Shown here piece by piece: positions 9,116 through 60,086 of a DNA stretch of 64,000 nt; positions within the stretch are counted from its first letter, which is position 1, and each line of letters starts with the position of its first letter. The position numbers and the translations under genes are program-made. Under the pieces are notes generated by a model that saw nothing but the letters and a program-made list of their open reading frames with translations, ran no database searches and had not been told where the DNA came from. Source of the stretch: Eledone cirrhosa (lineage: Eukaryota); contig OZ024745.1 of the NCBI GenBank assembly GCA_964016885.1, positions 23,994,001-24,058,000 on the forward strand, written 5' to 3'.

Positions 9116-9285
9116 TTATAGAAGGAGCTTCTACAGGACTAGTACTGTTTCATTCAGATGAAATCTTCAGGAAGCTCTGTACTAGTCCTGTAGAAGCTCC
9201 TTCTATAAAATAAAAAAATTTTACTCTGCCATGTATTGAGTACCTTACTTACTGTGGTTATCCCCGACTCAACCCGGGACCTACG
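9116..9285. mobile_element. Fold-back PLE pseudo-LTR mini-cassette in (TA)n
   Basis: Perfect 30-bp inverted repeat TTATAGAAGGAGCTTCTACAGGACTAGTAC (9116-9145 / 9179-9208). The right arm has a tail of about 75 bp. (TA)n lies on both sides. Related sequence at 47897-48025 and 50963-51116. Confidence 0.75.
9125..9177 (-). ncRNA. Type I hammerhead ribozyme
   Basis: Minus strand: gagcttc-CTGAAGA-t ttc atct gaa t-GAAA-cag tactagtc ct-GTA-gaagctc. Stem I is 7 bp, stem III is ACAG/CTGT, triplet GUA. Confidence 0.85.
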
Positions 9286-9649
9286 TATATATATATATAT
9301 ATATATATATATATATATAAATAAAAATTAGCGAGAATCGAATTTCAGCCCATGAAATAACGAAAAAACACTTTCGAATTCGTGAGGCAAGCGCTCGATA
9401 ATTCAAATGAATTAGAGCTTACAACATACGTTAAAGGCCAAACACACTGAGATGGTGGTTAAACTAATTATCCACACAGCGAAGATTCGATCTCCTATTT
9501 CGGGTCAAACAGATATACAGATATAAAAATATATGAAAGCATAAATGTCTGGTACTCACCGGACCCCTGGAATGATGGTAAAGTCCAGTGTTTATATACA
9601 ATATATATATATATATATATATATATATATATATATATACGTCATTATG

Positions 9650-10070
9650 TGGAGATCTTAGCTCTTAGCTTTTAGTCCGATTGTTCCACCGGGAACATAA
9701 GTCAACCGATCGTCTCCAATGCCGTCTGTCGGCACCAGCCCATTGACATCCGTGCAAGGAGATGTTGACGGTTTGTAAGTCACTTTGGAATGTCCACCGC
9801 CAGATCATCTTTGGTCAGTCTCTTTTCCGCTTGCCTTCGGGGAAGTCCACGTCCTCGCCATTTCGGACGGGTGGTTTTCTGGGAGGTGCAGAATGTGACC
9901 CGCAAAACAGAACCGAGCTCTGTGCCGACCCCCTTCAGTGCAAGAGATCCGGCTCTCCGCAGGATCTCTTGGTTCCTCAACCTTATGCAGACACACTTGA
10001 TGGAAAATGTTTAGACGCCTATCCGTCTTGGCAGTGCGTTTCCAAGTTTCATAGGCGTGTAATTGACAAA
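9650..10070 (-). pseudogene. Degenerate RTE-like LINE 3' fragment
   Basis: Minus-strand translations LHAYETWK..RRLNIFHQVCL, NQEILRRAG and FAGHILHLPENHP resemble the post-RT C-terminus of RTE-clade LINEs; frameshifted. Confidence 0.65.
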
Positions 10071-10093
10071 GAGAAGACAACGAAAGACAATAA

Positions 10094-11025
10094 CGAAAAC
10101 ACGGCAGAACGAAAACACGGCAGAAAGAAAACACGGCAGAATGAAAACACAGCAGAACGAAAACACGGCAGAATGAAAACACAGCAAAACGAAAACACGG
10201 CAGAACGAAAACACGGCAGAATGAAAACACGGCAGAATGAAAACACGGCAGAATGAAAACACGGCAGAACGAAAACACGGCAGAATGAAAACACGGCAGA
10301 ATGAAAACACGGCAGAACGAAAACACAGCAGAATGAAAACACGGCAGAACGAAAACACAGCAGAACGAAAACACGGCAGAATGAAAACACGGCAGAATGA
10401 AAACACGGCAGAACGAAAACACGGCAGAATGAAAACACGGCAGAACGAAAACACGGCAGAATGAAAACACAGCAAAACGAAAACACGGCAGAACGAAAAC
10501 ACGGCAGAATGAAAACACGGCAGAACGAAAACACGGCAGAATGAAAACACAGCAGAACGAAAACACGGCAGAATGAAAACACGGCAGAATGAAAACACGG
10601 CAGAACGAAAACACAGCAAAACGAAAACACGGCAGAACGAAAACACGGCAGAATGAAAACACGGCAGAACGAAAACACGGCAGAATGAAAACACAGCAGA
10701 ACGAAAACACGGCAGAATGAAAACACGGCAGAACGAAAACGCGGCAGAATGAAAACACGGCAGAATGAAAACACGGCAGAATGAAAACACAGCAGAACGA
10801 AAACACGGCAGAACGAAAACACGGCAGAATGAAAACACGGCAGAACGAAAACACGGCAGAACGAAAACACGGCAGAACGAAAACACGGCAGAATGAAAAC
10901 ACGGCAGAATGAAAACACAGCAGAACGAAAACACGGCAGAACGAAAACACGGCAGAACGAAAACACGGCAGAATGAAAACACGGCAGAACGAAAACACGG
11001 CAGAACGAAAACACGGCAGAATGAA
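10094..11025. repeat. 16-bp minisatellite, about 58 copies
   Basis: Unit GAAAACACGGCAGAAY; period 16. Explains the long overlapping minus-strand ORFs here. Confidence 0.97.
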
Positions 11026-56900: not shown

Positions 56901-57095
56901 AGGGGCGGTGGATTGGCAGTATCGGTAGCGGGTCGGACGCCATGCTTTGACGCATAGAGTTACGGCCCTTGCCATTCTGAGTTCAAATCCCGCCGAGGTT
57001 AACTTTGTTTTTCATCCTTACGGGGTCGATAAAATAAAGTACCAGTAATGCACTGGGGAAATTGCTGGCTTTGTGCCAAAAGTAGAAACAATTAT
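56901..57095 (+). mobile_element. tRNA-derived SINE with 16-bp TSD
   Basis: ATTATTT(C/T)ATACATGT flanks; near-identical to 55360-55545. Adjacent 57107-57180 is a decayed R4/Dong 3' UTR remnant. Confidence 0.9.
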
Positions 57096-59096
57096 TTTAT
57101 ACATGTTCACCAATAGAGTGAGAGCCGGATTCTAACAGAAACAAGACACTTTCATTTGAATTTAGACATCAACTATGTACATACGTATGTATCCCTGCAT
57201 GTGTTTGTGTGTGTGTGTTTGCGCGCGTGCGTGTGTATGTGTATGTGTGTGTGTCCATGTATGGGTGTTATTGCATGTGTGAATCTGTATGTTTTAAGTT
57301 ATATGTGTACACGTTCATATCTATACACGAGTATATGTAGTTACTACATGTACATGCATATGTGTGTGTGTGTGTTTAAAGACGAAGAAAAAAGTGAGTG
57401 GTTATATACACATTGTTCATATATATGTACGCATGCGCAGTAACGTTTGGAATAAATACTTCAAAATTAGAACGAAAATATTTTTTTATGTAAATCAATT
57501 AATAAAATGCTCAACAAAAGGGAAAAATGTCATTTTTTAAGCAATAATATTTTGAAACGAAAAGAAACTCGAAGATGAAATAAAGCAAATGTTGAAATAT
57601 ATGTGTAACACCCTTTACAGCTTCTCCGTTCGTGATCATGTTTCTGGCAACCGAACGCTTATAAATATATACGAACCCATAAGGCTTTCATCACCGGAAC
57701 TGCAAATAATGTCATATAGGGATTTACTTTCTTTATTTACATTATAATGTATAAAATATATTCGGAGAAATTCTGGAGGGGTGTTGAGTGTAATATCTAT
57801 GTATTTCAATATGTAGCTTGAACTTAGTTTGTCTCTTCATTTTAATATTTGCCGCAACAGCAGCGGCGACAGCAGCAGCAGCAGCAGCAGCAGCAGCAGT
57901 AGTAGTAGTAGTAGTAGTAGTAGTAGTAGTAGTAGTAGGCAATTTTGAAGGTGAAGATGATGATGATGAAGAAAAGTAACATGAACAAAAACAATGGCAA
58001 TAAAAACAACTATAAAAATGAAGAGAGTGAGAGAGAAAGAGATAGAGAGAGAGAAAGAGAGAGGGAGAGAGAGAGAGAGAGAATAGAGAAAAAGAGAGTG
58101 AGAGAAAGAGAGGGAGAGAGAGAGCGGGAGAGGGAGAGAAATGGAGAGAGAAACAAAGAGAGTGAGAGAATAGAGAGAAAGATGGAGAGTGAGTGAAAGA
58201 GAGAGATAGAGAGAAAGAAGGAGAGAAAGATGGAGAGTGAGTGAAAGAGAGAGATAGAGAGAGAGAGAAAGAAGGAGAGAAAGGTGGAGAGAGAGAGAGA
58301 GAGAGAGAGAGAGAGAGAGAGAGAGAGAGAGAGAGAGAGAGAGAGAAAGAGAGATGAATCTTCAGAAGTACGATATACTTTAAAAGGAAATGAAGAGGGA
58401 AAGAGAGGAAGAAAAAAAGAATCAAAGAGAGAAAAAGAGGAAAAAATCAAGGAAATGTTGGTAGAGAGTTAATCGCAGTTGAATGAAAGGAAAAGGAATA
58501 GGAATATGGTTGTGGCAAAGGATGTCGTCACCGCTGTATTGTCTCTCATTGGTCCACAATGACGTCAGCACATGTGACATGCATCAACGAATTACTGATG
58601 TTTCGGCGGTCGTTGTTCAATAGGTCAATGTTTACCGGTTGGTCGACTGCGCCAGATGTCTCAAAGTATGTGTGAGTTTTATATGTACATACATATATAT
58701 GTACATACATACATACATACATACAAATGTATGTAAAGCATACATATACACATACATACATATACACATATATACAAACATACATACATGTATACATATA
58801 TATATGTATACATCCATATATATTTACATACATACAAACATATGTACATTCATAATGTATGCATATATACATACATACGTACATACGTACAAACATACAT
58901 ATATACATATATATTTACATACGTACATACATACATAATATATACATATATGCATACATACATGCATGCATAAACAGAGATACATATATACATACACAAG
59001 CACAAACATATACATACACACATAAACATATAGAAATGTGCATACACACACGCATACATACACGCATAAGTACCTATATATATATACATATATATA

Positions 59097-59228
59097 TAAT
59101 TGTTTCTACTTTTGGCACAAGGCCAGCAATTATCCCAGTGTATTACTGGTACTTTATTTTATCGACCCCATAAGGATGAAAGGCAAAGTTAACTTCGGCG
59201 GGATTTGAACTCAGTCCGTAAAGGGACA
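59097..59228 (-). mobile_element. 5'-truncated SINE
   Basis: 3' two-thirds of the major SINE family. Confidence 0.85.
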
Positions 59229-59928
59229 CACACATATATATATACATACACACATACATACGCGTACATACACGCACACATATATATTTACATATGTATG
59301 TGTATGTATATATATATATATACACACACATACAACACATACATACATATATACTACATTAACATGGTGCTGTTTTCCCACGACTCTTCCTTGTCTCTGT
59401 TCCACTGTATTTTCCCTTTCTCTTCCTCCCCCTTTCTCTACAGATATATGTATTTATATATAGACACGTATACACATGTATGCGTATACACACATCATCC
59501 GGTCTCTTTTTATATATATGTACACGCATATACATATATATATATACATATATATATATATATATATATATATATATATATGTATATATATATATATATA
59601 TACATATATATATATATATATATATATATATATATATATATATATATATATATATATACATATATATATATATACATATATATATATATATATATATATA
59701 TATATATACATATATATATATATATATATATATATATATATATATATATATACATATATATATATATACATATATATATATATACATATATATATACATA
59801 CATACATATATATATATATATATATATATATATATATATATATATATATATATATATACATATATACATATATATATATATATATATATATATATATATA
59901 TATATATATATATATATATATATATATA

Positions 59929-60086
59929 ACGAAGGAGGTGTGGTAAGGAAGCAGATGGACCATAACGCACGAGAGAACTCAATACTTAGTGTAGTAGTAA
60001 CCCCAACGGCAGAGCTCAAGCCGTTTCGACGGCTATTTCTAGTCGAAACGGCTTGAGCTCTGCCGTCGGTGTTAAACATTTTCCTA
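59929..60086. mobile_element. Fold-back remnant of the 31-34 kb Penelope family pseudo-LTR
   Basis: Inverted repeat CGGCAGAGCTCAAGCCGTTTCGAC / GTCGAAACGGCTTGAGCTCTGCCG; the left tail is homologous to 34590-34661. Another remnant lies at 30284-30340. Confidence 0.78.

Follow-up and report, generated by a model that had tools for sequence, protein, structure and literature searches.

The window analyzed here is a 64,000-nt stretch of the Eledone cirrhosa genome (GCA_964016885.1, contig OZ024745.1, positions 23,994,001 to 24,058,000). It carries fold-back cassettes that, judged by domain and motif marks, are the 3' ends of Hydra-clade Penelope-like elements (PLEs) wherever an open reading frame (ORF) was found. 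Our results show that these insertions end just before a short RNA hairpin, and that the hairpin is duplicated: the tailless end of an insertion stops before copy 1 (site 1), the tailed end stops before copy 2 (site 2), and the tail is the stretch between the two copies. The Hydra-clade elements, internal initiation by their reverse transcriptase (RT) and the tail are already known, whereas the motif, the fact that it is duplicated and its link to both sites appear to be new. How the RT of PLEs chooses its start sites and why the tail is one-sided are posed as open questions in the available parts of PMC8557442 and PMC11167929; statements on these and the other cited papers refer to those parts.

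A covarying hairpin

The motif consists of a 4-bp outer stem in which (G/A)CUC pairs with GAG(C/U), a 2-nt UN bulge, a second, covarying inner stem and an unpaired RCU. In the 3.0-Gb E. cirrhosa genome the pattern RCTC-N8-20-TW-GAGYRC-YY has 156,470 matches, compared with 4,946 for the reversed pattern. The looser pattern of an earlier sequence-only reading occurs 13 times in the window, against a mean of 2.5 and a maximum of 8 in 200 local dinucleotide shuffles. The motif exceeds its control in both window and genome. The ten GAGTRC positions given in that reading are all present, each with an upstream ACTC (the one on the minus strand being 46390-46395), and its two degenerate copies, at 51003 and 59975, were found too. 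Three of the 13 loose matches were not listed in it and are apparently unrelated: the one at 8855 is without inner stem, and those at 12664 and 56399, both on the minus strand, lie inside another repeat.

Covariation was counted by script, without a covariance model, in 56 de-duplicated instances from other organisms, for which only the outer anchors served as selection criterion. At the first, second and third inner positions, 52, 43 and 34 of these have Watson-Crick pairs, compared with 27.7, 17.0 and 14.2 in shuffles that ignore relatedness among the instances (p=0.0002 each). The pairing excess is restricted to the register with a 2-nt bulge, which reads UU in 39 instances, UC in 12 and UA in 5. 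G-U pairs outnumber A-C by 14 to 1 in the inner stem, which indicates that the motif folds on the sense strand. The outer stem varies pairwise as well (ACUC/GAGU, GCUC/GAGC, UCUC/GAGA, GUUC/GAAC and GCAC/GUGC), and the sea-louse consensus published with PMC8557442 has GCCC/GGGC.

A pseudoknot between loop and tail, seen by eye in a few families, was rejected, as the mean longest helix was 3.65 compared with 3.64 in shuffles (n=85); the loop has at most 4 nt in 37 of these 85 hairpins. Rfam returned no match in ten motif-bearing loci. The Rfam scan of the window gave 255 matches, and the 150 listed are to miRNA or snoRNA models, all below the gathering score.

Two hairpin copies and two end sites

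The elements fall into several families, denoted here by letters. In families B, J, K and M, the order is hammerhead, copy 1, copy 2, and then the ATG of the ORF. Read-through (tandem) copies of family B place copy 2 (GCUC...UA-GAGC-ACU) 3 nt past the end of the tail, with the ATG about 65 nt after it, and thus both end sites precede a hairpin. A pattern for two successive copies matches 1,708 times in the genome (control 344) and led to families J, K, M and N. The rarity of doubles relative to the single matches is expected if ends stop before copy 2, the double-copy and single-copy patterns being not identical. Family N keeps both copies, and no Hydra ORF was found behind them.

Of 152 ends scored in families B, J, K, M and N, 142 fall within the 0-10 nt upstream of a hairpin copy, where 40.4 would be expected from any TA/AT, and none of the counted ends lies 3' of the start of copy 2. 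Read-through and locus-edge ends, among them 18 of 37 from family B, are not part of this count. Queries that stopped short of site 1 retrieved the copies of J, K, M and N, and protein matches those of B. In a separate junction tally, all 37 family B ends are at the two sites.

The layout predicts a copy 2 past the tail end in other families. For family C the search gave 225 matches (control 0); among the first 100, which were listed, nearly all read GCUC...U(U/C)-GAG, and a Hydra ORF lies behind copy 2 in 19 of 20 fetched loci. For family A the prediction of a canonical copy 2 failed, with nine matches of which none is canonical; its copy 2 is a reduced, covariant 4-bp GCAC/GUGC stem, followed by what is, by eye, a Hydra-like ORF start. 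The copies are spaced 76-90 nt apart in this genome and 55-79 nt in 31 foreign double leaders.

Within the window, the last base common to both arms lies 2-10 nt before ACTC (9 nt at 39.1 kb; 4 nt at 47.8 kb, by eye and with an indel). The sequence-only reading had put the tailless end 4-14 nt 5' of ACTC. The near-fixed distance stands and the range does not, since its upper value of 14 nt is a count to the TA and not to the last base common to the arms. The tracking of the motif by the junctions extends well beyond the window, as the 142 of 152 ends illustrate. That the tailless arm always ends at a TA is contradicted by young copies of family A (the 9116 family), which have a single T in common with the target and pass over a closer TA; this 1-nt match likewise speaks against an obligatory UA pairing in priming. 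The cassettes had been called unrelated, but several are related in sequence (9116/47900/51000; 31159/60000; 38.8k/46.3k/48.3k) and they belong to the Hydra clade wherever an ORF was found. The description of one-tailed fold-backs is generally correct, except that 47896-48030 and the copy at 8985 show, by eye, no inverted tailless arm. What had gone unseen was the second motif copy just past the tail end, by which both junctions are marked. Of the proposed cis element that positions the RT, there remains a conserved structured element that follows the junction on its 3' side, with little variation in distance between families or species, which fits RT positioning for priming on nicked (TA)n; the "boundary" and the UA rule fall away.

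The two copies also differ from each other. In the foreign double leaders the first inner pair is U-A in 18 of 31 copies 1 and C-G in 28 of 31 copies 2, and in families B, C, J, K, M and N of this genome copy 1 has ACUC/GAGU and copy 2 GCUC/GAGC. A satellite on contig C1 of the same genome (about 14.24-14.27 Mb) is built of units of about 58 nt, each with a family B-like hairpin copy. Family X (window 50004-50400, minus strand, and 52472-52823, plus strand) is a retrozyme-like tandem unit of about 316 nt with a hammerhead; its end sites are about 35-40 nt apart, with a degenerate GCU...GAGCAC between them.

The host elements

Intact copies of family B elsewhere in the genome hold a single ORF of 716 aa with YRDD and a C-terminal YIG. 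The protein has SDKT (DKT for DKG) and RWR instead of RWK and, by eye, CNCPDRSIC (the CxCx5C linker), CNLC (CxxC) and CKH (CxH). The DKT, the CxCx5C linker and the CxxC and CxH motifs place it in the Hydra clade by the marks given in PMC8557442. Its GIY-YIG core has no cysteine pair, and its nuclease no CCHH. A Pfam scan of the ORF fragment in the window gave no family and no solved structure was matched by sequence. The model of the 716-aa protein (pLDDT 93.6) has TERT structures as its top fold matches, as expected for a PLE.

Family B is very young: 150 scored protein matches are all 100% identical over 201 aa, and the 3,531-bp units of an array differ by 0-1 base. Its terminal ends pass directly into TA repeats in 33 of 37 cases. 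In 87 of 97 counted hammerheads predicted for the family, UUGAGAA replaces CUGANGA, a pair-keeping change at U3/A8. At 34080-34085 of the window, the tailed family B arm jumps from mid-ORF to the 3' UTR, with about 1.55 kb missing compared with the other arm.

Fold-backs and the single tail

The asymmetry of the tail is itself already known (PMC8557442; PMC3846280). In families B, J, K, M and N, 63 of 65 fold-backs, some of them at loci chosen by the motif, have one tailed and one tailless end, two are without tail and none has two. All 24 family B insertions picked by protein matches alone have one end of each kind, and a single tail per fold-back was also found in 18/18 cases in family A and 6/6 in family C. 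Either the tailed or the tailless arm may be the long one. At the inversion points, 21 of 25 show an overlap of 1-15 nt, mostly 1-7 nt. Mismatches per 480 nt amount to 0.8 between the arms of one insertion and 4.8 between insertions.

Solo copies of family M (window 48472-48640) measure about 175 nt; their 5' end is constant, lying at an internal ATAT, and they are bordered by (TA)n on either side. In a Neptune-like family of the same genome the tail is about 58 nt, its ends may close one stem (GUUUC/GAAAC), and both sites read AAUAU|CG. At four loci a single TA run holds several PLE ends, from one family or from different ones, arranged back to back.

The motif in other organisms

The foreign set comprises 96 Hydra-like loci (64 clusters) from metagenome (marine) and genome contigs. 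Among the 46 clusters with an ORF start and at least 100 nt upstream, two copies occur within 200 nt in 17, a single one in 15 and no copy in 14, compared with 4/46 on the antisense strand and 0.8/46 in shuffles. GAGCAC is also the top 6-mer upstream of the ORF when no motif is assumed (19 of 31 clusters). The strict scan of the 16 clusters with a hammerhead at most 330 nt from the ORF start finds two copies in eight, one in six and none in two; by eye and with variants allowed, 14 of the 16 have two. Of 16 mapped rows in foreign contigs, eight are same-family ends that stop 0-4 nt short of a copy; the other eight (scores of 26-36, cross-family alignments or a contig end, at a distance of 12-27 nt) were set aside as not being true junctions.

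The motif can also be seen by eye in five of the six new Hydra consensus sequences of Craig File S7 (PMC8557442; coral, sea cucumber and sea louse), one of which has both copies. Five motif 9-mers gave four matches at Hydra consensus ends in the available 584-kb Craig supplement and three elsewhere. The motif is absent from the Neptune-like family, and no GAGYRC is present in the RNA of PAc, a Poseidon-clade PLE of Anolis, as drawn in Fig. S1 of PMC11167929. With few clades sampled, the motif is thus not a universal PLE signal. No relative was found among viral contigs. Eighteen Hydra-clade PLE loci come from contigs catalogued as prokaryotic genomes and probably represent DNA of an animal host that was binned there.

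Proposed mechanism and alternatives

On the sequence evidence, each hairpin probably holds the RT and sets its start 2-10 nt upstream, with 1-6 nt of AU pairing helping the nicked (TA)n to prime. The hairpin that sets an end is absent from product and target and folds on the sense strand, and is therefore likely read on the template RNA. Since just 1-6 nt are common with the target, it would act more as a ruler of 2-10 nt than through pairing.

For the insertion as a whole, we lean slightly towards the following course. The PLE nuclease would cut both (TA)n strands, and two RT subunits would occupy the two hairpins of one RNA. Priming would take place at site 1 for one DNA end and at site 2 for the other, with the same upstream RNA copied from both, and the two cDNAs would join where they stop via short microhomology. 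The outcome would be a head-to-head insertion with exactly one tail, whose length equals the hairpin spacing. Only copies with cDNA through the whole unit would keep both hairpins before the ORF and could move again. Two-end priming on one RNA would need strand displacement or a second template. Whether this amounts to programmed twin priming, by a dimeric telomerase-related RT on tandem hairpins with ruler-set sites and with the duplicated hairpin as the RT-recognition element of the clade, appears to us evenly balanced.

Several observations weigh against this picture, besides the disregard of relatedness in the inner-stem shuffles. ViennaRNA gives the outer stems of the family B leader pairing probabilities of only 0.12 and 0.43, and folding of the naked RNA favours another structure there. 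In 18 foreign rows, two of them repeated, the outer stem ranges from 0.2 to 1.0 and the inner stem is often weak; the hairpin fold would thus need protein. Copy 2 of family A is without bulge or RCU, yet its site 2 is sharply used, and family X has two sites with only its degenerate motif. Gene conversion, or the use of two RNAs transcribed from a single source locus, would also account for the identity of the arms. Family M occurs mostly as solo copies without a tailed arm (28 ends at site 1 and one at site 2), and thus two primings are not obligatory. Finally, the Neptune-like family, so labelled from its Zn-finger and nuclease motifs and with a single read-through copy seen, has two end sites and 11/11 one-tailed fold-backs without the motif, so the one-tail rule does not need this hairpin.

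The same junction geometry is predicted if the hairpin signals cutting of the RNA a few bases 5' of it, by self-cleavage or by a nuclease that recognises it, and ordinary target-primed reverse transcription (TPRT) then begins at the new 3' end. The conserved unpaired UN bulge and RCU could then be catalytic or recognition positions. We consider this unlikely. The motif is one hairpin of about 25 nt, with no pseudoknot and no Rfam match, and to our knowledge the known self-cleaving motifs are all larger. A cut at site 1 would also separate the template from copy 2, which makes ends of one kind each harder to explain, and PAc starts internally whatever the 3' extensions of its RNA (PMC11167929). 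It is still less probable in our view that the GIY-YIG nuclease recognises the motif at the DNA level, cuts a tandem or cDNA intermediate beside it and joins the end to (TA)n. In favour of this, PMC8557442 attributes the tail to an intermediate being resolved by the nuclease, cleavage by the D. virilis nuclease depended on the tail (cited in PMC11167929), and GAG-YR-CTC is near-palindromic. The covariation, however, is with the upstream strand and not inside the palindrome (GUUC/GAAC-ACUC and GCAC/GUGC-ACUC), which counters a palindromic DNA site; the excess of G-U over A-C favours a single sense strand, and the (TA)n targets are without motif.

The position of copy 2, about 20-75 nt before the ATG, would suit a role of the hairpins in translation, packaging or stability of an uncapped leader, and the ends could then be set by, for example, AU-rich microhomology, as the sequence just 5' of each copy is AU-rich. 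As the explanation of the ends this is very improbable: most TA/AT sites are ignored, family A skips the nearer TA, and family N retains both copies with no Hydra ORF found behind them. The hairpins may have a second, translational role beside setting the ends.

Comparison with known systems

Stringent LINE/SINE 3' stem-loops and the R2 3' UTR are small RNA structures recognised by their own RT and common to non-autonomous partners. Their position is 5' of the priming site and each insertion contains a copy of them, whereas the PLE hairpin would set an end from which it is left out, and is present twice. In L1 twin priming both cut ends prime on one RNA, the cDNAs join by microhomology and an inversion results; its second site arises by chance matching, and its arms do not overlap. 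In the PLEs, by contrast, neither site varies and one arm duplicates the other.

The telomerase template boundary element and SL5 of DRT10 are likewise short stem-loops by the template that position a related RT (PMC12632851). They lie 5' of the template and set the stop, whereas the PLE hairpin is 3' of the priming site and would mark the start; nor is there repeat addition, unlike in telomerase. The template-boundary signal put forward in the sequence-only reading is rejected on this ground: the motif is on the 3' side of the junction, and copying runs through copy 1 where an end is tailed.

In vitro, PAc cuts both strands and both are extended; its RT initiates internally, at two positions that delimit the tail, and requires RNA 3' of them, and it is modelled as a dimer (PMC11167929). 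No conserved or repeated binding motif is defined for PAc in the available text, whereas here a duplicated, phylum-spanning motif is tied to each site. The Hydra-clade PLEs of PMC8557442 share with the present elements the domain order, DKT, CxCx5C linker, hammerhead and (TA)n targets and have, likewise, inverted copies with a tail often at one end only; their tail is 30-40 nt compared with 55-90 nt here. The words "stem-loop" and "hairpin" do not occur in the available main text of that paper. We found no description of the motif, its duplication or its tie to both sites in the available literature, which included parts of PMC3846280, PMC4209133, PMC7229834, PMC5737381, PMC13282606 and bioRxiv 10.64898/2026.07.22.740005, with Repbase reports, subscription journals and some supplements left aside.

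The result is a defined, covarying 25-nt RNA motif tied to each site, which is conserved between this genome and the consensus sequences from cnidarians, echinoderms and crustaceans. It can be used as a marker for short non-coding Hydra-clade copies, with about 150,000 matches here. If the proposed reading is true, it shows a template grip 3' of the primer in the sister group of telomerase, and the duplicated hairpin accounts for both the one-sided tail and the head-to-head structure. A 25-nt tag 3' of any RNA could then set a scarless start for (TA)n insertion.

Features of the window

The hairpin copies and the parts of the family B insertion are listed in Table 1.

Table 1. Positions of hairpin copies and of family B features in the window
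Feature	Position	Strand	Remarks
Hairpin copy	8964..8990	+	In tail-only fragment
Hairpin copy 1	9223..9243	+	Family A fold-back 9116-9285
Hairpin copy	9391..9418	-	GCUC...GAGCGC; missed by the sequence-only reading
Hairpin copy	27881..27935	+	Long loop; fold-back 27575-27980
Family B fold-back insertion	31159..34662	tailless arm -, tailed arm +	Young Hydra-clade PLE (by motif marks); TA-rich repeat flanks
5'-truncated ORF	32377..33795	-	RT palm and thumb, CxCx5C linker, GIY-YIG nuclease
Family B hammerhead motif, predicted	34478..34569	+	U3/A8 core variant (UUGAGAA)
Site 1, tailless family B stop	34583..34585	+	Joins (TA)n; 5 nt before hairpin; mirror end 31159
Family B tail	34586..34662	+	Ends at site 2
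Hairpin copy 1	34591..34617	+	Family B; ACUC / UACU stem / UU bulge / GAGU-ACU
Hairpin copy	37215..37242	+	Fold-back 36727-37308
Hairpin copy 1	39091..39112	+	Family C fold-back 38832-39174
Hairpin copy 1	46390..46411	-	Family C fold-back 46326-46723
Hairpin copy	47820..47841	+	Bulge of 1 nt here; fold-back 47642-47879
Hairpin copy	47969..47989	+	Family A single arm 47896-48030
Hairpin copy	48087..48112	+	Mini fold-back 48045-48165; arms of about 11 nt, without hammerhead
Degenerate hairpin copy	51003..51024	-	AUUC/GAGU; family A
Hairpin copy	51211..51234	-	GCUC...GAGCUAU; tail of fold-back 51140-52414; missed by the sequence-only reading
Degenerate hairpin copy	59975..60000	-	5' half lost; family B relative

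Two other repeats were noted in the window. At 13796-18913, a 1.5-kb inverted repeat (14003-15528 / 17207-18707) is formed by a decayed non-LTR-like RT with a C-terminal nuclease-like ORF. At 19658-20532 lies a transposase remnant with inverted ends, which from its peptide we take to be mariner-like.

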